Assembly: GCA_046481785.1 (NCBI GenBank)
Contig: JAWOJF010000040.1
Coordinates: forward strand, 1-57,643
Source of the DNA: Ignavibacteriaceae bacterium
Lineage (GTDB): Bacteria > Bacteroidota > Ignavibacteria > Ignavibacteriales > Ignavibacteriaceae
DNA length: 57,643 nt
Direction of reading: 5' to 3'
Shown: positions 2,461 through 50,190 of the stretch, piece after piece
Numbering within the stretch: the first letter of the stretch is position 1
Layout: every line of letters begins with the position of its first letter
Notes under the pieces: generated by a model
Seen by the model: only the letters and a program-made list of their open reading frames with translations
The model's database searches: none
What the model was told of the DNA's origin: nothing
Position numbers and translations under genes: made by a program

Positions 2461-4044
2461 ATGAACAGCAATCCATTAGAAGCAGTATTCGGTATTTTTA
2501 ATAAGCTGTCCCTCCAGCATAAAATATTAATTGGCGGAGCAATTCTTTTAACTGTAGTAATGCTTGGCATGCTTATCTTCTTCCTTAATGAACCGAGCTA
2601 CTCGGTATTGTATACAAACCTGGCTGAAGATGATGCATCCAAAGTTGTTGAAGAATTAAATGCACAAAAAATATTATTTAAAATTGAGGATAACGGTAAG
2701 ACCGTAAAGGTTCCTAAAGACAAACTTTATGAAATTAGATTAAATCTTGCGGGAAAAGGAATACCGGGCTCAGGTGTTTTAGGATATGAGATTTTTGACC
2801 AAAACACCATGGGCATGTCCGAATTTATGCAGAAACTTAATTTTAAGAGGGCCCTTGAAGGGGAACTGGCCCGGACAATAATGCAGCAGGAGGGGATAGA
2901 AGGAGTTAGAGTTCATATAGTAACTCCTCAGAAATCAGTTTTTAAAAGTGAAGAAAAGGAACCCACAGCGTCAGTTGTACTTAATTTGAAGGGGAACTAT
3001 TCTCTTTCAAAGGGAAGCATAACTGCAATACTTAACCTGGTTTCAAGCAGTGTTGAAGGCCTGCAGCCGGGGAAGGTAACACTTCTGGACTCAAAGGGCA
3101 GGCTTCTTTCAAACGACTTTGAAGATAACCCTCTGGCTTTTTCAAGTACAAAACAGTATGAAATAAAACAATCTGTTGAAAATTACCTTGCAGCAAAAGC
3201 ACAGAGTATACTTGATAATGTTGTTGGCTATGGCAATTCAATTATTCAGGTTAATGCCGATTTGAATTTTGATCAGGTTGAAAAAACAATGGAAATGTAT
3301 GATCCTGAATCGCAGGTTGCAATAAGTGAACAAACAATTAAAAGTGAAAATAGCGGGAAAAATTTAAGTGATTCATCCGGGGCTGTAAGTGAAAATTCAA
3401 CAACTAATTATGAAATAAGTAAAACGGTTGAAAGAGTTATCCAGGGATCAGGCAATGTATTACGTTTAAGTGTAGCAGCAGTTATTAACGATGTTGCTAA
3501 AGAGGTGAAAAATGGGGAAAATGTAGGTATAGTTTATGAACCCCGTACCCCGGAACAGCTTAAGAAGCTTGAAGAAATTATAAAAAATGCCGTTGGTATA
3601 GATCCTAACCGGCTGGATCAGTTTTCACTTGTAAATATATCTTTTGAAGCTAATAATATTGAGGGTGAACAAATTGAAGAACCTTCATTTTTTGACAATA
3701 TAGAAAGATTTACAAATATAATTCTGATTGTAATTGCTGCTATTGCCGGACTTTTAATACTAAAAGGCTTAATGACCAAACTGAAGAATGAGAAAATTAT
3801 AATAGGTACACTTAACCAGGATGTTTCATACCAGCCGTCACGTGTTAGCAGCGGCGGAGGGAATACGCAGATACAAGTTAAACAAAGGAAACCGTTGCTG
3901 CCTTTAGGTGATATTGAAGATGAAATTTCCGATGAGGCTATTGATAAGAAAAACAGGGAAGCAAAAATTATAAACTATGTTTCAAAAAATCCCGTTGAAG
4001 CTTCAAAACTAATAAACGCATGGATGCATGAAGATGAACTATAA
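2461..4044 (+). CDS. fliF: flagellar MS-ring protein FliF
   Basis: 527 aa. N-terminal TM segment, YscJ/FliF-like region (LYTNLAEDDASKVVEELNAQKI..., RALEGELARTI), and a C-terminal TM segment. Confidence 0.93.
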   Translation: MNSNPLEAVFGIFNKLSLQHKILIGGAILLTVVMLGMLIFFLNEPSYSVLYTNLAEDDASKVVEELNAQKILFKIEDNGKTVKVPKDKLYEIRLNLAGKGIPGSGVLGYEIFDQNTMGMSEFMQKLNFKRALEGELARTIMQQEGIEGVRVHIVTPQKSVFKSEEKEPTASVVLNLKGNYSLSKGSITAILNLVSSSVEGLQPGKVTLLDSKGRLLSNDFEDNPLAFSSTKQYEIKQSVENYLAAKAQSILDNVVGYGNSIIQVNADLNFDQVEKTMEMYDPESQVAISEQTIKSENSGKNLSDSSGAVSENSTTNYEISKTVERVIQGSGNVLRLSVAAVINDVAKEVKNGENVGIVYEPRTPEQLKKLEEIIKNAVGIDPNRLDQFSLVNISFEANNIEGEQIEEPSFFDNIERFTNIILIVIAAIAGLLILKGLMTKLKNEKIIIGTLNQDVSYQPSRVSSGGGNTQIQVKQRKPLLPLGDIEDEISDEAIDKKNREAKIINYVSKNPVEASKLINAWMHEDEL

Positions 4045-7027: not shown

Positions 7028-7459
7028 ATGAAATTCGTTTACAAGTTTGACGCAATAAAAAAAATAAAAGAAATTTTTGAAAAAAGAGTTCAAAAAGAAG
7101 TAGCTGCAATTCAGCTCGAAATAGAGAAGAAGGAAGAAGAGTATAATGCTATTCTTCTGCAGAGAGTTTTGGAAAGCAAGAGAGATATGAAGCATATTTC
7201 ATCTTCTGAATTAAAGTTTCATAAAAATTATCTTGGCGTGCTCAGTAGTGAGCTTGGAAAGATCAGGAAAGAAATAGACCTGCTTGGAAAGAAAAAAGAT
7301 GAGAAACTTCTGGAGCTTATACAAAAAAGTAAAGAACATAAAATATTTAATACCCTGGAAGAAATACATTTTGAGAATTTTACACAGGAACAAAATAAAC
7401 TGGAGATGATAAGTATTGATGAAATTGCAACACAAAAATTTGCCAGGAACAAAAATTGA
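7028..7459 (+). CDS. fliJ: flagellar export chaperone-like protein FliJ
   Basis: 143-aa Lys/Glu-rich coiled-coil protein directly after fliI. The call is based on position and composition. Confidence 0.65.
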   Translation: MKFVYKFDAIKKIKEIFEKRVQKEVAAIQLEIEKKEEEYNAILLQRVLESKRDMKHISSSELKFHKNYLGVLSSELGKIRKEIDLLGKKKDEKLLELIQKSKEHKIFNTLEEIHFENFTQEQNKLEMISIDEIATQKFARNKN

Positions 7460-8109
7460 AAGATAAACTGATTTATATTGTGGCTTTTACAATGGCTTTC
7501 CTGCTTGTTACAGGCGGGTTTCTCTATCTTAACACAATATATAAAAATATTTTTGCATTCGATTTTACTCCCGTGAATGCTCAGACTGAAGAGCCTGTTG
7601 AGGACACGGATGAATCAGAACAGAAAGAGGAAACAAAACAGGAAGTAAATGAGCCTGAGATGCAGGAAGAACCGGAAGGAATACCTGTTTATATAAACAC
7701 TGATTCAATAAAAATTGCCATGCGGAAAAACAGTGCAGATTCATCCGCATTAAAAGACTCTGTTGTTGTAAAAAAAGATAAGAGTGTTGTGCTGGAGGAT
7801 TCAATTAAAAATTTGAAGCAGCAGATAAAAGAAATTGCTTCAAAAAAAGATCAAATACTGGAAGCCAAGATAGATTCGCTTAAACTGGCAAGTAAAATAT
7901 CTGTTGCAGACAGCTCATACAAAGCATGGATAAAGAAAACAGTTTCGCTCTATGAAGCAATGGATTCCAGGAAGGCTGCTAAAATAATTCTTACTTACTC
8001 CGATAATATTGCAAAGGACATCCTCTATTCAATGAAGAAAAAGAAAGCCGCTGAAATATTGGCGCAATACAGTCCCGAAACAGTAAATAGGATAACAAGT
8101 ATAAAATGA
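7456..8109 (+). CDS. YlxF/MotE/FlbB-like flagellar protein with MgtE_N-type C-terminal domain
   Basis: N-terminal TM segment. C-terminal YEAMDSRKAAKIIL..IAKDILYSMKKKKAAEILAQYSPE resembles the MgtE-N/MotE repeat. It sits between fliJ and fliK, the same position as B. subtilis ylxF. Confidence 0.6.
   Translation: MKDKLIYIVAFTMAFLLVTGGFLYLNTIYKNIFAFDFTPVNAQTEEPVEDTDESEQKEETKQEVNEPEMQEEPEGIPVYINTDSIKIAMRKNSADSSALKDSVVVKKDKSVVLEDSIKNLKQQIKEIASKKDQILEAKIDSLKLASKISVADSSYKAWIKKTVSLYEAMDSRKAAKIILTYSDNIAKDILYSMKKKKAAEILAQYSPETVNRITSIK
7980..8006 (+). promoter_or_regulatory. candidate sigma28 (FliA)-type promoter, TAAA-N15-TCCGATAA, internal to the ylxF-like gene and ~100 nt upstream of fliK
   Basis: TAAA 7980-7983, exactly 15 nt, then TCCGATAA 7999-8006. 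The consensus is TAAA-N15-GCCGATAA. Confidence 0.4.
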
Positions 8110-10421
8110 TGACATCAAACACATTAACCGCATCTGCTAATACAGCAGGCAGCCTATTCCAGATTTTTAATCTTCCAAAAGCAGGCAATTCCTCTTATTT
8201 ATTCTCAGACATTATAAAAATTATTGGCAACGAAGCAGACCCTCAAACAATTAATAACCTGCCGGGCATAACTGCATCATCAACTGCAGGAACCGCCGTG
8301 CCTGAGTTAAATATTATTGATACCTCAAAGCTTATTGGCTTGCTTTTAAAAAATATAAACGGCGAAACAGGAAAGAATGCAGAGACAAATGAAAACCTTT
8401 CCGGAGAACAGTTCTATATAAGTGAAAATGATCTAAATGACTTTATTACTTTACTTGGACTGGAAAAAACATCTGCTGTTGCTCAACAACTATCGGAAAT
8501 AGAAGTTGAAATTAGTCCCGAATTTCTTGAAAAACTCGCAAGGTTTACAGGTGGTTCAGTTAAAGATAATGGCAAACATTTATTTATTAGTCTGGATAAC
8601 AGTATTAATGATGAAAATAAGGATGATAGTGAAGTAATTCCATCGGGAAACAAAAAAATAAAAATTATTTTTAAAAAAATTGAACAGGATAATTCACTCA
8701 ATTCTTTACAACCGGAACTACTTGCAGGCGATTTTAATTATAAAATAATCCATACTTTAGAGACAACCGGTGCTGTTAACCCCGGCTTAACCGCAGAACC
8801 GGAAAAAACAATTGTTGTTTCCCCAAATGCCCAGGCAAATGGAAGCACAAAAGTTTCTGCAAAAGGCCAGGGAGTGGATCAAAAAATCCAGGTGCAAACC
8901 GGAAATATTGAATTTGAATTAACTTCCGGTGAAGATGAGATTTCCACTGTAAAAAATTCAACTGATATTGCTGCAAAGCCTGTATCAGATAGCCAGGAAT
9001 TAACAGGTAATAAGTTACCTGTTGATAAAAAACCTGTGTTTAATGTTGGTTCAAATATTAAAATAGAAAATCCTGATAAAGAAATTACTCAAGTTAATAC
9101 TAAATCAAATAATAAAGCAGAACCCGTAATTAACGTATCAACAGAAGATAGTAGTGATACAGATGTAATGACTGCTCAAAAGATTTCTATTAAGTCCGAA
9201 ATGACAGAGCCTGCCGGCGAGAAAATAAAAGTTAACATGCAGGAATCTCATACTAAACTGGTAATTAAACCTTTGCCGGATAAAACGGGAACTGAATCTG
9301 CGGAAAAAATATCCGGCAGGCAGGATACTAAAATATCTTTAACCCTTCCCGGAAAAGAGCCGGTTGAAGGTTTACAAAAAACTTCTGTAGAAAATACATC
9401 AACAAAAAATGTTTCAGTAGAAAATTCATCAACAAAGAATGTTTCAGTAGAAAATTCATCTGACAAAACCGCTCCCAAGACAGTTGAAAAAGTTTTTAGC
9501 CGCCCTCTTATTCCTAACGAAATATTAAAAGGTGAAGAAGATATAAAAACACCCGGTACCACAGCTAAGACGGTTAGTGAACTAAAGAGCCTCTACCAGG
9601 TAACCTTTGAGAAGGCGGAACCCAAAAACCCGATAAATAATGAAAAAAGCCTTCCTCATAATTTTTATACTTCAGATTATGAAGAGTTTGATAACGGACT
9701 CTTTACTGATAAGCTTCAGGCGGTTGTAAAAGAAAAGGTAATACAGGGTAAACCGGAAGAACACTCAACTAACCAGGCTACTTCTTCTGCAAAGGATGGT
9801 CTTCCGGAGAATAAGATCACTGTTAAAGAAAGCCCGGGCGATTCACAGGACAAATCTGCATCAAATAATAACTCCGGTGAAAACCATCAGGGAAATAAGC
9901 AGAATATGAAGCCAGGCAATGAGTTTATTTTAGAGCCTGTCCAGTCAAGGAATGCTTCAAATGATTCTGCTAGTACCGGTAAAACTGAACCTGTTAAAGA
10001 TTATACATTATTTAAGAATATAAATGCAAATGATCTGATTGATGAAGTTAAAAGTCTTGTTGTAAAAGGTGAAAGATCAAATGTTGTACTTAAACTTAAC
10101 CCCGGGCATCTTGGAAGTGTAAAACTGATTATTGAGATAAAAGATGCCGTGATGAATACTAAAATTGAAGTTGAGAATGAGTCGGTAAGACAAATAGTAC
10201 AAAACAATGTAGACATTTTAAAACAATCACTCCAGCAAAATGGAATACATTTAAATTCTTTTACAGTTTCCCTTACTTCACAGGAGCAGAAATCATCATC
10301 TGCAAAACCGGAACACAAGAAAAAGGGGCATACTGTAAAGAATGATATTACAATTGACGAAGAGATAAATGCCTCAGCGTCTAAAAAAATGGGTTACAAC
10401 ACGTACGAATATCTTGCTTAA
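8106..10421 (+). CDS. fliK: flagellar hook-length control protein FliK
   Basis: 771 aa. Long low-complexity Ser/Thr/Asn/Lys-rich ruler region. C-terminal Flg_hook domain (VVLKLNPGHLGSVKLIIEIKD...ENESVRQIVQNNVDILKQSLQQNGIHL). Confidence 0.88.
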   Translation: MMTSNTLTASANTAGSLFQIFNLPKAGNSSYLFSDIIKIIGNEADPQTINNLPGITASSTAGTAVPELNIIDTSKLIGLLLKNINGETGKNAETNENLSGEQFYISENDLNDFITLLGLEKTSAVAQQLSEIEVEISPEFLEKLARFTGGSVKDNGKHLFISLDNSINDENKDDSEVIPSGNKKIKIIFKKIEQDNSLNSLQPELLAGDFNYKIIHTLETTGAVNPGLTAEPEKTIVVSPNAQANGSTKVSAKGQGVDQKIQVQTGNIEFELTSGEDEISTVKNSTDIAAKPVSDSQELTGNKLPVDKKPVFNVGSNIKIENPDKEITQVNTKSNNKAEPVINVSTEDSSDTDVMTAQKISIKSEMTEPAGEKIKVNMQESHTKLVIKPLPDKTGTESAEKISGRQDTKISLTLPGKEPVEGLQKTSVENTSTKNVSVENSSTKNVSVENSSDKTAPKTVEKVFSRPLIPNEILKGEEDIKTPGTTAKTVSELKSLYQVTFEKAEPKNPINNEKSLPHNFYTSDYEEFDNGLFTDKLQAVVKEKVIQGKPEEHSTNQATSSAKDGLPENKITVKESPGDSQDKSASNNNSGENHQGNKQNMKPGNEFILEPVQSRNASNDSASTGKTEPVKDYTLFKNINANDLIDEVKSLVVKGERSNVVLKLNPGHLGSVKLIIEIKDAVMNTKIEVENESVRQIVQNNVDILKQSLQQNGIHLNSFTVSLTSQEQKSSSAKPEHKKKGHTVKNDITIDEEINASASKKMGYNTYEYLA
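9387..9460 (+). repeat. 30-bp tandem repeat (about 2.5 units) inside fliK, encoding VENxSTKNVS repeats
   Basis: Unit 1 is 9387-9416, unit 2 is 9417-9446 (2 mismatches) and the partial unit 3 starts at 9447. Protein: VENTSTKNVSVENSSTKNVSVENSSDK. Confidence 0.85.
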
Positions 10422-10442
10422 AGCAGGATAAATCGGAGAGAT

Positions 10443-10469
10443 TAAACTTTTAAAGCATTTCTCCGATAA
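10443..10469 (+). promoter_or_regulatory. candidate sigma28 (FliA)-type promoter, TAAA-N15-TCCGATAA, in the fliK-flgD spacer
   Basis: TAAA 10443-10446, 15 nt, then TCCGATAA 10462-10469. The -10 octamer is the same as at 7999-8006. It is embedded in the inverted repeat ATCGGAGA (10432-39) / TCTCCGAT (10460-67). Confidence 0.45.
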
Positions 10470-10526
10470 TAAGATGTAAAATGGTGCCTGAAGCAAAGGT
10501 ACAATGATATCAGAAAACTTTAACCA

Positions 10527-10599
10527 GAGCGGGACCTTTTAAGGACGCTCCAACCCCTGCCTAATGGCAGGCAAACTGCCCGACTGACTGAAGGCGGTT
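10527..10599 (+). promoter_or_regulatory. conserved structured leader element, copy 1 (three stem-loops), upstream of flgD
   Basis: H1 is GAGCG/CGCTC, H2 is CCTGCC/GGCAGG and H3 is AACTGCC/GGCGGTT. It is about 89% identical to 11770-11843, with compensatory changes in H3. Confidence 0.6.
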
Positions 10600-10691
10600 A
10601 ACATGAACCTTAAAGGTTAAACACTTCTGATTTCCACACTTTAGCTTACCAGGCTTATAAATCCTTAAGTTTTATTACAAGGAATATTATT

Positions 10692-11384
10692 ATGATTGAT
10701 ACAGTAAACAGTGGTTATTCCGGAACATACTCGCCAGAAGGAGCTGGAAAAAGCGAACTTGGTAAGGATGACTTCCTGAAACTTATGATAACCCAGTTGA
10801 GATATCAGGATCCTATGAACCCTTTGGACAGCAACGAATACAGTGCACAGCTTGCGCAGTTCAGCTCGCTGGAACAGCTTACCAATCTTAACGAAAATCT
10901 TACCTCTATGATTGAGGCTAACTATACTTTAACACAGTCTGTTTATAATACTATGACCACTACTTTAATTGGCAAAGAAGTAAAAGTTGATGGTAACGAA
11001 TTTAATAATAAAGGGCAGGATAGTATTGATCTGGGATTTAACTTATCTGCTGCTCCTGCAAATACAACTATTAAAATTTATAATGAATCAGGTAAGCTTG
11101 TAAGAACAATTGATGATAAGTCATTCAGCTCTGGTGATAATAAACTAAACTGGGATTTTACAGATGATTCCGGCAATGAGCTTCCCGAAGGCAAATACAG
11201 TTTTGAAGTTGAAGCAAAAGGTTACGGCGATACAAATCTTACTGTTAAAAGCTTTAAATATGGAACAATTAACAGCATTAAATATACTGAAGACGGAATT
11301 ATGCTTTTGATTAACGGAATGGAGTATCTGCCGGCAGAAATTATAGAAATAACAAATCCTTCAAACAGCGAAGGAGATAACTAA
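10692..11384 (+). CDS. flgD: flagellar hook assembly/capping protein FlgD
   Basis: GKDDFLKLMITQLRYQDPMNPLDSNEYSAQLAQFSSLEQL is the canonical FlgD N-domain. The C-terminal part is FlgD Ig-like. Confidence 0.93.
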   Translation: MIDTVNSGYSGTYSPEGAGKSELGKDDFLKLMITQLRYQDPMNPLDSNEYSAQLAQFSSLEQLTNLNENLTSMIEANYTLTQSVYNTMTTTLIGKEVKVDGNEFNNKGQDSIDLGFNLSAAPANTTIKIYNESGKLVRTIDDKSFSSGDNKLNWDFTDDSGNELPEGKYSFEVEAKGYGDTNLTVKSFKYGTINSIKYTEDGIMLLINGMEYLPAEIIEITNPSNSEGDN

Positions 11385-11385
11385 A

Positions 11386-11757
11386 ATGGCAGAGATAAAC
11401 GGGATTAAAGTTCCCTTTATACCAATAATCAGTGAGCCGGTACTTCAGAAAAAGATTAATACCGATTCTGGAGATTTTGATGCCATTTTTCAGCAGGAAC
11501 TTGAGAAAGTAAAATTCTCAAATCATGCAATGAAAAGACTTGAAACAAGAAATATACAGCTTGGCGATGAAGAAATCGGCAAAATCCAGAACGCTGTGGA
11601 ACTTGCAGAGCAGAAGGGTTCAAAAGACTCTCTGGTACTTATGAACAATACAGCTTTTATTGTTAATGTTCCTAACAGAACTGTTGTTACAGCATTGCCT
11701 GTTAATGATAGTTCGGAAAATATTTTTACAAATATAGACAGTGTAGTTTTAATATAA
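11386..11757 (+). CDS. flagellar operon protein of the TIGR02530-like family found between flgD and flgE in Firmicutes and spirochetes
   Basis: FSNHAMKRLETRNIQL....AVELAEQKGSKDSLVLMNNTAFIVNVPNRTVVTA matches my memory of that family pattern. The position is conserved. Confidence 0.6.
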   Translation: MAEINGIKVPFIPIISEPVLQKKINTDSGDFDAIFQQELEKVKFSNHAMKRLETRNIQLGDEEIGKIQNAVELAEQKGSKDSLVLMNNTAFIVNVPNRTVVTALPVNDSSENIFTNIDSVVLI

Positions 11758-11769
11758 GTAAATAATAAA

Positions 11770-11843
11770 GAGCGGGACCTTTTAAGGACGCTCCGACCCC
11801 CTGCCTGACGGCAGGAAGGCTGCCCGACTGACTGAAGGCAGCC
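11770..11843 (+). promoter_or_regulatory. conserved structured leader element, copy 2, upstream of flgE
   Basis: The first 26 nt are identical to copy 1. H3 here is GGCTGCC/GGCAGCC. It is followed by hairpin AACCT(11861-65)/AGGTT(11870-74), which encloses the flgE SD AGGAGG. Confidence 0.6.
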
Positions 11844-11877
11844 AACACAAATTAAACATAAACCTTAGGAGGTTATA

Positions 11878-13614
11878 ATGGCACTTCTTAATTCACTCTT
11901 TGCAGGCGTATCAGGTATGCGTAATCATCAGTCAATGATGGATGTTATTGGCAATAACATTGCAAACGTTAATACAATCGGGTTCAAGGGTTCAAGAATC
12001 ACCTTCAGTGATGCTTTTAACCAGTTTGTAAAAGCAGGTACAAACCCAACTGCATCAACAGGTGGTACAAATACTTTCCAGGTGGGTCTTGGTATGAAAA
12101 TAAATTCCATAGACAGGAACTGGAACCAGGGTACATTTGAAAGAACAGGGATTACAACTGATATGGCTTTGCAGGGCCCCGGAATGTTTGTTCTTAAAAG
12201 TAATGAAGAAAGATTTTATTCAAGAGCAGGTGCATTTATTTTTGATGCAGATGGTAAACTAGTTTCTCCTCAAAACGGAGCTATTGTGCAGGGCAAGGTT
12301 GCTAATAGTGATGGTGCTGTACCTCCCGGAAACAACCTTGAGGATATAGTAATTGATACGAATTTAAAACTTCCTGCAATTGCAACCGACCTGATAAAAT
12401 GGGGCGGTAATCTGAAAAGTAATTCCGAGTTAACCAGGTCAGATAATGTGGTACAAAGAGGTAATCTAAATTCAAATTTTGAGGCCCCGGCTACAGCGCC
12501 AGGACCATTCGATACCCAAACTGCTATATATAATGAATTGGGTGAGAAGTATATTCTTAAAGTTACATATACTGCAACAGCAACACCTAATGAATATGAC
12601 ATGACATGGAGAGTTCTAGATGAAGAAGGCGAGCCATTCCTTCTTGATCCAACAGATCCGCTTTCTATTGATCCGGCTTATGATGGCGCTCTTCCTAATC
12701 CTATTTTATTTATTGAAAATCCTCCAAGCAGCGGAAATTTTGTTTTGGATGATACTTCAAAGGCCTATTTTGATAGTGATAGTACCGATGATAATCATGT
12801 TACTGTTCCTGGTTTTGATGCAGGATTTGATATAGAGGCAGGTTCAATTACTCAGAATGGCAGTACAACAACATTAAGTTTATCTGCTGATGGTAATAGA
12901 GAACCTAATATTGTTAGTGGTTCAGTAACAATATTCGATTCACTTGGTACATCACACCAGGTTACAATGAAATATACAAAAATTCTTGATAATACCTGGA
13001 TCTGGAGTGCTTCGATACCCGGTATAAGCACTGATAACGGTCTTGCAGTGGATTCAACAGGAACAATTACATTTAACTCTGATGGTACATTGGATCCGAG
13101 TAAAATTGCGCCGAATAATCCTCAGCTTACATTTACACCTGCGGGAGGTGCTAATCTTATGGTTATTGATCTCGATTTCGGAAGAGGATTTGGCGGTGTT
13201 ACACAAACTTCTTCAAGTTCAGTAATTTCAGCTTTAAACCAGAATGGTTCAGCATCAGCTTCATTATCAAACATAAATATTGACCAGTATGGACACATTG
13301 TAGGTATATTCTCTAACGGTAATTCAAGAACCCTTGCACAGGTAATGGTAGCAACTTTTGCAAACCTTAACGGTTTAATAAGTGTTGGCGATAACCTCTT
13401 TTCATCATATGCTAACTCAGGGGATCCCAGAATAGCATCGCTTGGTGAAGAAAGCGGCACTACTGTTCAATCAGGTGCTCTTGAGCAATCCAATGTAGAC
13501 CTTAGTGAAGAGTTTACAAAAATGATAGTATCGCAGAGGGGTTTCCAGGCTAATGCCAGGGTAATTTCAACTGCAGATACTTTACTCCAGGAAATAACAA
13601 ATCTGATCAGATAA
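11878..13614 (+). CDS. flgE: flagellar hook protein FlgE
   Basis: N-terminal ALLNSLFAGVSGMRNHQSMMDVIGNNIANVNTIGFK. C-terminal ALEQSNVDLSEEFTKMIVSQRGFQANARVISTADTLLQEI. Confidence 0.95.
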   Translation: MALLNSLFAGVSGMRNHQSMMDVIGNNIANVNTIGFKGSRITFSDAFNQFVKAGTNPTASTGGTNTFQVGLGMKINSIDRNWNQGTFERTGITTDMALQGPGMFVLKSNEERFYSRAGAFIFDADGKLVSPQNGAIVQGKVANSDGAVPPGNNLEDIVIDTNLKLPAIATDLIKWGGNLKSNSELTRSDNVVQRGNLNSNFEAPATAPGPFDTQTAIYNELGEKYILKVTYTATATPNEYDMTWRVLDEEGEPFLLDPTDPLSIDPAYDGALPNPILFIENPPSSGNFVLDDTSKAYFDSDSTDDNHVTVPGFDAGFDIEAGSITQNGSTTTLSLSADGNREPNIVSGSVTIFDSLGTSHQVTMKYTKILDNTWIWSASIPGISTDNGLAVDSTGTITFNSDGTLDPSKIAPNNPQLTFTPAGGANLMVIDLDFGRGFGGVTQTSSSSVISALNQNGSASASLSNINIDQYGHIVGIFSNGNSRTLAQVMVATFANLNGLISVGDNLFSSYANSGDPRIASLGEESGTTVQSGALEQSNVDLSEEFTKMIVSQRGFQANARVISTADTLLQEITNLIR

Positions 13615-13632: not shown

Positions 13633-13662
13633 GGCGGGATAGCAGTATCCCGCCTTTTTTTT
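13633..13662 (+). terminator. Rho-independent terminator after flgE
   Basis: GGCGGGAT (13633-40), loop AGCAGT, ATCCCGCC (13647-54), then T8 (13655-62). Confidence 0.85.
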
Positions 13663-13875
13663 GTAGCACAGGCTTTAGCCTGTGTTTTTTTTTGTGAGCA
13701 AGTTAAACCCCGAAATTATCCAGCACGGGCTTTAGCCTGTGATGTTTGTAAAGCAGGCCGGGCGGGTACATATGAACATCTTAATTCTCTTAAAAATCAG
13801 TCCTTTTCACAGGCTAAGGCTTGTGCTGCATAATTTCCAGTTGTTTTCTGTTCACAGGCTAAAGCCTGTGCTACA
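13662..13875. repeat. nested inverted array of four REP/BIME-like palindromic units (A, B, C', D'); possibly MITE-like
   Basis: A (13662-84, TGTAGCACAGGCTTTAGCCTGTG) is the perfect reverse complement of D (13853-75). B (13712-41) is about 87% identical to the reverse complement of C (13808-38). Each unit is itself a CACAGGCT..AGCCTGTG hairpin. Confidence 0.8.
13667..13693 (+). terminator. second hairpin plus T9 (palindromic unit A acting as a back-up terminator)
   Basis: CACAGGCT (13667-74), TT, AGCCTGTG (13677-84), followed by T9 (13685-93). Confidence 0.6.
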
Positions 13876-37129: not shown

Positions 37130-37510
37130 ATGAAAATAGTAACCTTTCAATTTGGTGAGATAGAGTTTAGTCCGGACAAAGTTATTAACTTCTCCTCCGG
37201 TATATTAGGTTTTGAAAACCTCAGGAGTTTTCTATTGATTAAAACTGAGGATGATCTTTTTTATTGGCTTAATTCTGTTGATAAGCCTGACATTGCATTC
37301 CCAATGATTGGTACAAGGGTAATAGATGAAAAATATCCTTGCGAGGAAGAGCATGAAGCTTTTGCAATTGTTACCCTTAACAGCGATCCCTTAAAAGTTA
37401 CTGCTAATCTTAAAGCCCCGGTATATATTAATCAGGAGAAGAAATCAGGTTTCCAGAGAGTTATAGACACTGATAATTATCCCGTTAACTTTAATCTTTT
37501 TATAGAATAG
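37130..37510 (+). CDS. fliW: flagellar assembly factor FliW (CsrA antagonist)
   Basis: FGEIEF..DKVINFSSGILGFENL..FLLI......FYWLNSVD.PDIAFPMI...ANLKAPVYIN is the FliW pattern. Adjacent to csrA. Confidence 0.9.
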   Translation: MKIVTFQFGEIEFSPDKVINFSSGILGFENLRSFLLIKTEDDLFYWLNSVDKPDIAFPMIGTRVIDEKYPCEEEHEAFAIVTLNSDPLKVTANLKAPVYINQEKKSGFQRVIDTDNYPVNFNLFIE

Positions 37511-37523
37511 GCGGGTAAAATTA

Positions 37524-37778
37524 ATGTTGATATTAACAAGAAGAGCAAACGAAGAAATTAAAATAAGCCCTGATATTACTATCAGGATTTTGTCTTCTTC
37601 AGACAGCCAGGTAAAAATAGGTATTGATGCCCCGCCTGATGTTCAGATATTGCGGGGTGAAATATTTGATAAAATAGTGCAGAGTACTGTTGATGCCTCA
37701 GCACAAAGTAAAATAAAAGTAAATGATGTGTCGGCCTTAAAGCTTAATAAAATTGGCGGTTCAGATGGTAAACAGTGA
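37524..37778 (+). CDS. csrA: carbon storage / translational regulator CsrA
   Basis: MLILTRRANEEIKI.PDITIRIL......VKIGIDAPPDVQILRGEI is the canonical CsrA sequence. Confidence 0.95.
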   Translation: MLILTRRANEEIKISPDITIRILSSSDSQVKIGIDAPPDVQILRGEIFDKIVQSTVDASAQSKIKVNDVSALKLNKIGGSDGKQ

Positions 37779-49062: not shown

Positions 49063-50190
49063 TTATTTATCCAGCCTTTTTATTTCTATTTCACCATAAC
49101 TTGTATCAAGGAAAATTTTCCTGCCGCCGCCGTTAAAAGAATAAGTGGCCTTGATATTATCGTTATTTTTATTCACACTTTTACTCGTCGGAGTTAAATC
49201 ATAACGGATAAAATCCGTTTCATCATAACTGGAATGTTTACCGAATCCCCGTATCCTTACTTCAACTGTTATTTTTTCATTTTCAGCTATATATAATTTT
49301 ATATTGCCGTTATTGGTTTTTGCCCGGGATTCAGAATTTATATTCTGAAGTTCTATATGAATATCCCCTGAGCCGGATATTGCTTTTACAGATCCGTCAA
49401 CTTTATATAAATAAACACTCCCGGCCCCTGTTGATGCCTCAATACGTCCTTTTACCTGTAAGGATTTAATATTACCGCCGCCTGTATTCAGAGTTGCATC
49501 TCCATTAACATTCTTAATACTAATATTACCGCCGCCTGTGTTCAGCTTTACTTTGCCGTTTATTTCATCAACAACAATATTCCCACCGGCCGTATTAATA
49601 GCAATTGATTTACTGACATTGTTAATCCTTATATTTCCGCCTGAAGTAGAAACAGTGCCATTCCCATCAATGTTTGATAAATGTAAATCACCGCCGTAGG
49701 TTAAAATTTTCATTTCTCCCTTAATTTCCTCTGCTGTTACATCACCGCCGTATGTGTGCAGGTCGGTATATCCGCTTACTTTTTCTATAGAAATATCACC
49801 GCCTGAAGTAACACCCTTAAGACTTCCGACAAAGGAGCCCTTAACAGTAAGGTCTCCTGCCTGCGTACTCATCTCAACATAAAAATAAGACGGTACAGTA
49901 ACCTCTACATCCGAATAGTTGGAATTATTTGATCTTATTCTTACATGATTACCTGCAAATTTTACCAATAACCCATCTTCGTCCTCATCATAATCATCAT
50001 CATACCTAACAAGTACTTCGTTTTTATTCCATGTTTTAATTGATATATCGCCATAAGACAAATCAACTAAAAGATGCCCGTTTTTATTTACCTTAAAGGT
50101 CTTGGTTTTATAATTCTGACTAAAAACTGTCGCTGAGTTAATCAGAAAAAATATCATAACTATTTTTGCAACAGCACTGCACTTATTCAT
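49063..50190 (-). CDS. DUF4097-type repeat protein (putative beta-helical adhesin, LiaG/YvlB-like)
   Basis: Signal peptide and iterated GGDI/GGNI repeats (TSGGDISIEKV, TYGGDVTAEEI, TYGGDLHLSNI, TSGGNIRINNV, TAGGNIVVDEI, TGGGNISIKNV, TGGGNIKSLQV). Confidence 0.7.
   Translation of the reverse strand: MNKCSAVAKIVMIFFLINSATVFSQNYKTKTFKVNKNGHLLVDLSYGDISIKTWNKNEVLVRYDDDYDEDEDGLLVKFAGNHVRIRSNNSNYSDVEVTVPSYFYVEMSTQAGDLTVKGSFVGSLKGVTSGGDISIEKVSGYTDLHTYGGDVTAEEIKGEMKILTYGGDLHLSNIDGNGTVSTSGGNIRINNVSKSIAINTAGGNIVVDEINGKVKLNTGGGNISIKNVNGDATLNTGGGNIKSLQVKGRIEASTGAGSVYLYKVDGSVKAISGSGDIHIELQNINSESRAKTNNGNIKLYIAENEKITVEVRIRGFGKHSSYDETDFIRYDLTPTSKSVNKNNDNIKATYSFNGGGRKIFLDTSYGEIEIKRLDK

Follow-up and report, generated by a model that had tools for sequence, protein, structure and literature searches.

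What does the stretch of DNA in front of the hook gene flgE do, and why is much of it present twice in one flagellar gene cluster? The locus lies in a 57,643-nucleotide (nt) contig of an Ignavibacteriaceae bacterium, analysed here at its full length as "the window". Positions 11770-11880 had been described in the original prediction as the second copy of a three-stem element, followed by a hairpin over the flgE Shine-Dalgarno (SD) sequence that CsrA might bind. We find that 11770-11880 is the flgE copy of a conserved, structured, sense-strand mRNA leader of abundant axial flagellar proteins. Comparison of the sequences indicates that the element is most likely a cis-acting translational operator for these proteins, and CsrA-mediated repression of translation through the flgE leader is a candidate mechanism that we put forward tentatively. 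The parts of the leader, its gene and the second copy are as follows.

11770-11793, plus strand: H1 of copy 2, GAGCG-GGA-CCU-UUUA-AGG-A-CGCUC, fold energy -8.0 kcal/mol
11800-11815, plus strand: H2 of copy 2, CCUGCC-UGAC-GGCAGG
11818-11843, plus strand: H3 of copy 2, stem GGCUGCC/GGCAGCC (7 bp) and 12-nt loop CGACUGACUGAA
11861-11874, plus strand: flgE SD hairpin, AACCU (11861-65), loop UAGG (11866-69), AGGUU (11870-74)
11878-13614, plus strand: flgE (hook protein; NCBIfam FlgE models), the gene proposed as regulated
10527-10599, plus strand: copy 1, in the flgD leader, with H1 at 10527-10550, H2 at 10556-10571 and H3 at 10574-10599

The position and sequence of copy 2, in a true flgE leader, were confirmed. 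A covariance model, R1, was built on 118 distinct leaders, as were the covariation statistics; its scores are 71.5 bits for copy 2 (E 1e-13) and 42.5 bits for copy 1 (E 2e-7; 42.5-49.4 bits across models). The next-best match in the 57.6 kb reaches 10.8 bits; the window thus holds two copies only. The two had been said to share 26 nt from 11770; the near-identical start is there, but identity runs for 25 nt from 11770 and reaches 26 nt only when counted from 11769, with 1 of 32 positions differing over 11769-11800. The 12-nt H3 loops are identical, as had been claimed, and the H3 stems around them differ by two fully compensated A-U to G-C changes and one change of U.G to U-A. All three stems are indeed present in copy 2, but H2 is missing from 116 of the 118 aligned leaders and occurs only in this window and in locus L101. 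H2 is a rare insertion outside the conserved core, which consists of H1 and H3.

The H1-H3 RNA structure is real, far beyond chance. In the 118-leader alignment pairing holds in 95% of cells, with a covariation score of 0.307 as against 0.168 in shuffles, the observed value being attained by 0 of 500 shuffles; the signal collapses once the partners are slid. Changes on both sides are seen (RNAalifold, pair counts) in all 8 H3 pairs counted and in the 2 variable pairs of the H1 outer stem, which covaries (pair 2-23 is AU in 77 leaders and GC in 40). A wider alignment of 37 sequences including distant homologues, which was fitted to the model and so favours the structure, shows compensatory changes in 14 of 15 pairs, with both-side changes in all 5 outer and 2 of 3 inner pairs of H1. 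H1 is laid out as a 5-bp outer stem, a GGA internal loop (11775-77) opposite an A (11788), an inner CCU:AGG helix and a variable tetraloop; in the inner helix an anti-SD-like CCU(C) strand is paired with an SD-like (A/G)AGG strand. The 12-nt consensus of the H3 loop is N-GA-NN-GA-NN-GA-N, in which alignment positions G59, A60, G67 and A68 are invariant or nearly so: position 59 is G in 116 of 118 leaders and position 60 is A in 118 of 118, neither being forced by the search pattern. Since invariant loop and bulge nucleotides were not forced, they point to specific recognition rather than to a generic hairpin. The loop-flanking positions 58 and 69 covary in a non-Watson-Crick manner (U.U 43, C.C 21, C.A 18, G.A 12), and a mutual-information search for tertiary contacts between H1 and H3 brought out only the helix pairs and 58/69. 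From its sequence, the H3 loop has the look of sheared G.A pairs in tandem, flanked by a non-Watson-Crick pair. With its layout of stem-N-GA-(6 nt)-GA-N-stem, invariant GA and covarying N.N, it resembles, in sequence, K-loop or tandem sheared G.A motifs; K-loops are the binding sites of L7Ae-family proteins. Unlike in a K-loop, which does not require it, the central GA(C) of the H3 loop is also conserved.

No Rfam 15 family matched at gathering score anywhere in the window, and with E values up to 10 the region 10400-11900 gave four noise matches (17.5 bits or less), none on the sense strand of the element. In the literature searched, including motif-discovery papers, no described flgE or Ignavibacteria RNA motif matching the element was found. 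The motif, absent from Rfam and from that literature, therefore appears to be new, although of a known kind, that is, a post-transcriptionally controlled flagellar mRNA leader. Rfam does hold structured RNAs found upstream of flagellar genes or operons, namely the flg-Rhizobiales RNA and the c-di-GMP-I and c-di-GMP-II riboswitches. The element is like these in being a structured RNA before flagellar genes with a possible cis-regulatory role, but its architecture differs: two simple hairpins, a GGA/A loop and a (GANN)2GA loop. Other candidates were tried and rejected. H3 is followed by AACACAAAUUAAAC and no U-tract, and the terminator scan found no site in the leader, which speaks against a terminator or attenuator. 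Sigma-54 and sigma-70 promoters directly upstream of copy 2 were likewise dismissed: the GG of a -24 element is missing, the scan was at chance level, and the apparent TTGACA and TTGCA motifs are conserved C-terminal codons of the TIGR02530 gene. No reverse-complement match within the window offers the H3 loop a trans-acting antisense partner. A dispersed repeat of the repetitive extragenic palindrome (REP) or miniature inverted-repeat transposable element (MITE) type was dismissed, there being two copies in the window and one per locus in 122 relatives, always before flgE or flagellin.

How widely is the element found? A pattern scan of one genome per GTDB species gave at least 120 loci among the matches listed. 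Except for two chance hits (L086 and L106), the matches listed come from Ignavibacteria, Melioribacteraceae, Ignavibacterium or unclassified-Bacteroidota assemblies, and include cultured Melioribacter strains and an Ignavibacterium album assembly, a metagenome-assembled genome (MAG); the Melioribacter/Ignavibacterium loci carrying the motif are L029, L039 and L061. In all but one of these assemblies, among the matches listed, the element ends at the FlgE start, and with R1 each of 122 related loci shows one copy and no more. A sample independent of the RNA, made up of 14 Ignavibacteria-level loci chosen by FlgD homology alone, has the element in 14 of 14 cases (4/4 relatives and 10/10 metagenome loci). 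In the four relatives the gap between fliK and flgD is ~8 nt, which leaves no flgD leader there, and the gap between flg_new (the TIGR02530 gene) and flgE is ~100 nt and holds H1 and H3 without H2, then AAACCUUAGGAGGUU. A flgD-leader copy was found in none of ~200 related loci examined and is seen only in this window. Because a single flgE-leader copy is class-wide and the flgD-leader copy is confined to this window, the flgE copy is the orthologous one; judged by these comparisons it is the ancestral, class-wide element, and the flgD-leader copy is a lineage-specific duplication. Two further features lie behind copy 1.

10603-10620, plus strand: decayed SD hairpin, AACCU (10606-10) / AGGUU (10614-18), with the SD reduced to AAAGG
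10662-10683, plus strand: possible flgD SD-enclosing hairpin, UCCUU (10662-66) / AAGGA (10679-83), for which the centroid fold gives a weak 4-bp helix

The degenerate SD-hairpin sequence after copy 1 is AACCUUAAAGGUU (10606-10618), and its presence indicates that the whole flgE leader was duplicated. It is overlapped by a 5-codon mini-open reading frame (ORF), AUG AAC CUU AAA GGU UAA (10603-10620); a leader-peptide reading of it was rejected, the mini-ORF being found at copy 1 only and not conserved elsewhere.

Beyond the class, a metagenome scan seeded with FlgD covered 80 loci at 56-33% identity, 66 of which include a flgE-like start. The ten Ignavibacteria-level metagenome loci that reach flgE score 69-94 bits with R1 and 69-85 bits with a second model, R2, which detects the element in 22 of the 66 loci at E < 0.01 and in three more weakly. 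Exact-sequence look-ups assign the distant homologue L181 to Candidatus Kapabacteria, L144 to a 'Bacteroidota' MAG and L180, a weak H1-only match, to Zixibacteria. H1 of these distant forms has the layout stem / GGN / CCUC...GAGG / A or G / stem and their H3 loop keeps its three GA steps, some forms having H1 only; in loci without the element, flgE mostly follows flgD directly after a short gap. By sequence, then, diverged forms of the element occur in Kapabacteria and other lineages of the Fibrobacteres-Chlorobi-Bacteroidetes (FCB) group.

Flagellin is the canonical target of FliW-CsrA, and the element is found before flagellin genes too. In L100, a Melioribacteraceae chromosome, it precedes a flagellin gene and follows a sigma-28-like promoter at a distance of 86 nt. 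Eight further flagellin loci, fetched via flagellin homologues, were scanned with the covariance model, and the H1-H3 core was found in the first-flagellin leader of L125, L126, L127 and L130 at 51-64 bits (51-66 bits over the five genomes including L100). Among the 15 flagellin leaders without the core, 12-13 form a stable hairpin of 7-9 bp whose tetraloop is AGGA (or UGGA) and which lies 20-40 nt ahead of a GGAGG SD, as in GAGCA-AGGA-UGCUC, UUAAGCA-AGGA-UGCUUAA and GCCUGAUA-AGGA-UAUCAGGC. These AGGA-hairpin flagellin leaders are located as follows.

L128: 207-255, ~1340-1399 and ~2440-2506
L129: ~2440-2506
L125: 3799-3860
L126: 3799-3911
L127: 2387-2506
L130: ~3790-3871
L132: a further leader of this type

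The 3' half of H1 (AAGGACGCUC) resembles the AGGA hairpins of flagellin leaders (GAGCAAGGAUGCUC). On one Melioribacteraceae chromosome, OZ245062.1, flgE is preceded by the full element (L050) and flagellin by a plain AGGA hairpin (L129), so that both leader types coexist in one cell. The CsrA consensus obtained by SELEX is RUACARGGAUGU, with core CARGGAUG, the GGA being presented in a hairpin loop and a second site lying at the SD (PMC7652899). The AGGA hairpins fit this core almost perfectly, which makes a CsrA-type flagellar regulon plausible in the class and suggests a conserved control of flagellin by FliW-CsrA in Ignavibacteria. Other CsrA-type GCAAGGAYGC hairpins in the window are at chance level.

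Is the element part of an mRNA in this genome? The first 43 kb of the window, a contig of 36% GC, form a single plus-strand flagellar gene cluster, in which the gene order near the element is FliJ, an unnamed ORF, FliK (8106-10421), FlgD, TIGR02530 and FlgE. Homologues of FlgD assign the contig to the Ignavibacteria, with 69% identity for the best of them and with Ignavibacteriales or Melioribacteraceae for those that bear names. The neighbouring features are these.

10443-10470, plus strand: predicted sigma-28 (FliA)-like promoter, TAAA-N16-CCGATAAT, a consensus pattern match only
10692-11384, plus strand: flgD (NCBIfam), ATG at 10692, 270-nt gap after FliK
11386-11757, plus strand: gene for the TIGR02530 'flg_new' protein (NCBIfam), 120-nt gap before FlgE
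13633-13695, plus strand: two tandem intrinsic-terminator-like hairpins directly after flgE (terminator scan)

The sigma-28-like match stands between fliK and flgD, 57 nt upstream of copy 1, and promoters of the same form precede the flagellin genes in L100, L125, L126 and L128. The terminator scan gave 3 terminator-like sites against 0.5 expected; the tandem hairpins after flgE are GGCGGGAUAGCAGUAUCCCGCC+U8 and GCACAGGCUUUAGCCUGUG+U9 and open the 364-nt flgE-fliL gap. The predicted transcription unit would therefore run from the promoter through copy 1, flgD, flg_new, copy 2 and flgE to the terminators, with copy 2 as an intercistronic leader. The sense strand, the lack of a U-tract and of an adjacent promoter, and the position within a unit bounded by promoter and terminators together argue that the element is part of the mRNA. 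Two side observations concern these neighbours: a second sigma-28-type match (TAAA-N15/16-CCGATAA) occurs at 7980-8006, inside ORF 7456-8109 and just upstream of fliK, and the CACAGGCUnnAGCCUGUG hairpin repeats three more times in the flgE-fliL gap, at 13724-41, 13808-25 and 13853-70.

We then come to the SD of flgE, AGGAGG (11867-72), whose end is separated by 5 nt from the ATG at 11878. The coordinates given earlier for the hairpin around it, including its AACCU and AGGUU arms and UAGG loop, are all correct. The sequestration claimed for it stands in part: the hairpin encloses most of the SD, but alone it is worth only -3.6 kcal/mol (z = -0.99; 39 of 200 shuffles fold equally well). Its retention in orthologous leaders, which the original prediction had tied to translational control, is borne out within Ignavibacteria: at least 4 bp are kept in 88 of 118 leaders, 82% of the alignment cells are paired, and two pairs have compensatory variants, e.g. 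AUCCU..AGGAU and AGCUU..AGGCU. Compared with 58 other GGAGG-led genes of the same loci, flgE leaders have a more stable hairpin on average (-2.97 vs -1.42 kcal/mol; Mann-Whitney p ~1e-9, for sequences that are not phylogenetically independent and with no correction for phylogeny). The SD may also be occluded in another way.

11776-11787 with 11863-11874, plus strand: alternative pairing of GACCUUUUAAGG of H1 with CCUUAGGAGGUU, 12 bp, which would occlude the SD

The minimum-free-energy fold has this H1:SD pairing, at -38.9 as against -37.3 kcal/mol for H1 plus the SD hairpin, and the probability of SD-H1 pairing exceeds 0.5 in 31 of 118 leaders. Its covariation over the 118 leaders is no better than that of shuffles, and as a selected switch it was rejected: it is thermodynamically competitive, yet its covariation equals that of shuffles. 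In terms of modelled folds the long-range pairing is possible. RNA thermometers and translational riboswitches are similar in that an anti-SD-like strand (here the CCU/CCUC of H1, or the AACCU near the SD) can pair with the SD, and in that two competing folds are here of nearly equal energy; unlike such SD-sequestering platforms, the local hairpin is weak and the long-range alternative is without covariation support. Individual leaders show further arrangements. Two Ignavibacteriaceae flgE leaders (L014, ~270-310; L112, ~860-935) carry an extra structured insert of ~50 nt between H3 and the SD, CCCGUCU.CCUUGGCUCGA...UCGGG, and the ways in which the two inserts differ, being compensatory, point to a hairpin module that was added. 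In L182 (1230-1270), a distant flgE leader that lacks the element, the SD itself is enclosed in a perfect hairpin, CCUCC-UUCG-GGAGG, lying 6 nt ahead of the AUG; L149, L146 and L168, from other distant lineages, have kept no more than an H1-like hairpin (CCUC/GAGG). An anti-SD strand that masks the SD of flgE may, on these sequences, be a wider theme.

Which factor could act on such a leader? Both csrA and fliW are in the same flagellar cluster of the window, at the place where they had been reported (37130-37778), as the NCBIfam models confirm.

37130-37510, plus strand: fliW (NCBIfam FliW), 25 kb downstream of the flgE leader
37524-37778, plus strand: csrA (TIGR00202 at 70.1 bits, the same as the curated cutoff)

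Read from its sequence, this CsrA retains R44, the GxxAP motif and a long C-terminus; no flagellin gene was found in the 57.6-kb window. The flgE leader has GGA motifs at 11775-77, at 11786-88 (AAGGA) and, within the SD, at 11868-70, where the GGA straddles the loop and the 3' arm at the loop/stem edge. In the 14 RNA-independent leaders the 5' H1 GGA is present in 14 and the 3' one in 13. One CsrA dimer bridges sites 10-63 nt apart (PMC7652899). The proposal that these GGAs could be bridged holds within H1, where the two motifs are 11 nt apart, but not from H1 to the SD in this leader; across the 118 leaders the H1-to-SD distance has a median of 58 nt and is 63 nt or less in 101. CsrA is the best candidate in view of the csrA and fliW genes in the cluster, the CsrA-like flagellin leaders of the class, the shared leader position and the three GGAs. 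A hook target would be less novel than had been suggested: in RNA immunoprecipitation sequencing (RIP-seq) of C. jejuni CsrA, flgE mRNA is enriched 68-fold and many flagellar mRNAs are bound (PMC4894983), an enrichment which requires that claim to be tempered.

The leader shares several traits with the FliW-CsrA flagellin leaders of B. subtilis hag, C. jejuni flaA, B. burgdorferi flaB and C. difficile fliC: a 5' leader of an abundant axial protein, an upstream hairpin with a second GGA site over the SD, and fliW-csrA among the flagellar genes. Moreover, some flagellin leaders of the class have the H1-H3 core, next to paralogues whose hairpins with AGGA loops are of the textbook type (PMC4894983, PMC7652899). 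It is unlike them in that the gene is flgE, in that the H1 GGAs are in an internal loop and a helix rather than a hairpin loop (two ANGGA stem-loops are present in the flaA leader of C. jejuni; PMC4894983), in having the additional, strongly conserved and GGA-free H3, and in being ~75 nt long and conserved in sequence class-wide. The C. jejuni RIP-seq data on flgE, flgI, flaG and flaB are akin in that hook and other flagellar mRNAs associate with CsrA (PMC4894983), and CsrA sites between genes of polycistrons produce discoordinate operon regulation in that organism (PMC4894983); there, the flgE signal is in the coding sequence and no dedicated, conserved leader structure is known to have been described, whereas here a dedicated leader motif is present.

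From the structure, its conservation, its positions and its gene associations we infer a level of control (translation), a factor and a direction of regulation, which could fit together as follows. The leader would act in cis and set the amount of hook protein translated; it would have the same role for the first flagellin in some genomes and for the flgD-flgE unit in this one. A sequence-specific RNA-binding protein, with CsrA as best candidate, would bind the GGAs of H1 and of the SD hairpin, and would keep ribosomes from binding, whether directly or by releasing the CCU strand of H1, which could then pair with the SD. Repression would be lifted by FliW that has no unsecreted flagellin bound to it, and synthesis of hook and filament subunits would thus follow a common secretion-coupled feedback.

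A number of findings weigh against this reading. Judged by its modelled energy, the SD hairpin is not strong enough to sequester the SD unaided; it is specific to flgE leaders within Ignavibacteria and is missing from both the flagellin copies and the distant copies before flgE. The distance from H1 to the SD GGA is 82 nt here, beyond the reported bridging range. In the predicted fold one H1 GGA makes up a 3-nt strand of the internal loop, and most of the other is base-paired within the inner helix of 3 bp. The 5' H1 bulge of 19 distant homologues is GGA in 12, GGC in 4, GGU in 2 and GGG in 1, so that in 7 of 19 it would not suit CsrA. The H3 loop, the most conserved feature, has no GGA, and CsrA does not explain its conservation. 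Lastly, adjacent flagellin paralogues in L127 and L130 bear either H1-H3 or a simple AGGA hairpin, which could equally mean two different inputs. On the 3' side of H1, the bulge is G instead of A in L195, L176 and L204.

These findings bear on a different account, in which the same cis-acting leader RNA is read by another partner, either a flagellum-specific RNA-binding protein or a small-molecule ligand held by a riboswitch-like two-hairpin aptamer; we consider this possible but rather unlikely. On this account the partner, bound at the internal loop of H1 and at the H3 loop, would fix H1 and keep its anti-SD-like CCU strand off the SD; unbound, H1 would open and its GACCUU... strand would occlude the SD. 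That H1-H3 is the receptor of such an unrecognised regulator and not a CsrA site we rate as a real chance, though as less likely than not, and this regulator would jointly gate hook and first-flagellin translation in Ignavibacteria, Kapabacteria and other FCB-group bacteria via an anti-SD/pseudo-SD switch in H1. Another partner would account for the ~20 loop and bulge nucleotides conserved in distant lineages, especially the GGA-free (GANN)2GA loop of H3, for the H1 bulge of distant homologues, whose third base varies among A, C, U and G, for the two nearly isoenergetic folds (-38.9 and -37.3 kcal/mol) and for the distinct inputs suggested by neighbouring flagellin paralogues. However, we can name no candidate protein or ligand, the alternative pairing has no covariation beyond that of shuffles, the element is small and simple for an aptamer and matches no Rfam riboswitch, and the likeness of H1 to CsrA-type hairpins and the placement in flagellin leaders fit CsrA better. 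To our knowledge, post-transcriptional control of flagella is well described for flagellin, through the FliW-CsrA partner switch, barely for the hook, and not in the FCB superphylum. The ~75-nt structure is an easily mutated handle on the coordination of hook and filament subunit synthesis: should CsrA bind it, the FliW-CsrA circuit would extend to the hook gene by way of a non-classical binding platform; should it not, a new regulator or ligand remains to be found, and if the unrecognised-regulator account were true the element would represent a new class of cis-regulatory RNA, one that ties the making of axial proteins to the state that flagellar assembly has reached.

Control of mRNA processing or stability is an improbable explanation. 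An endoribonuclease would cut the AU-rich spacer before H1, H1 and H3 would protect the new 5' end and, together with the terminators that follow flgE, would make the flgE (or flagellin) segment long-lived, giving high output of an abundant subunit from a polycistron. The element is intercistronic with no promoter directly upstream, most leaders have an AU-rich spacer before H1, often with UUAAUUAA, and tandem terminators follow flgE; the element is tied only to the most abundant axial proteins, hook and flagellin, and protection of flhDC mRNA from RNase E by CsrA shows that leaders can work via stability (PMC7652899). Yet a generic stabiliser hairpin needs neither invariant loop and bulge sequences nor two specific hairpins, in flagellin leaders and at copy 1 the element is 57-90 nt downstream of the predicted transcription start and not at the 5' end, and the conserved SD hairpin would be left unexplained. 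As for the copies being mere repeated or mobile DNA, or a recombination substrate deleting or inverting flgD-flg_new, with no function as RNA, we give this hardly any credence. They do form direct repeats 1243 bp apart around two genes, as the original prediction had it, NCBIfam confirming flgD and the TIGR02530 gene. But there are two copies only in 57.6 kb and exactly one per locus elsewhere, at an orthologous position and strand and with compensatory changes that preserve the RNA helices; the identical stretch is just 25-26 nt long, and none of the ~200 related loci has the deletion or the flgD-leader copy. Recombination between the repeats, which had also been envisaged, is effectively excluded.

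Other features of the window were noted in passing. The first 200 nt are 70% GC compared with 36% for the remainder, and within positions 1-654 an ORF (61-654) has a low-complexity translation rich in Arg, Thr, Pro and Trp, which may be a contig-end assembly artefact or foreign DNA. In fliK, three tandem 30-nt repeats at 9380-9468 encode ...VENSSTKNVS..., which fits the variable-length ruler region of a hook-length protein. Finally, a minus-strand ORF (49063-50190) contains 54-nt tandem or near-tandem repeats at 49467-49790 (4 copies, 61-100% identical), and its product looks, from its sequence, like a repeat-containing secreted or surface protein.

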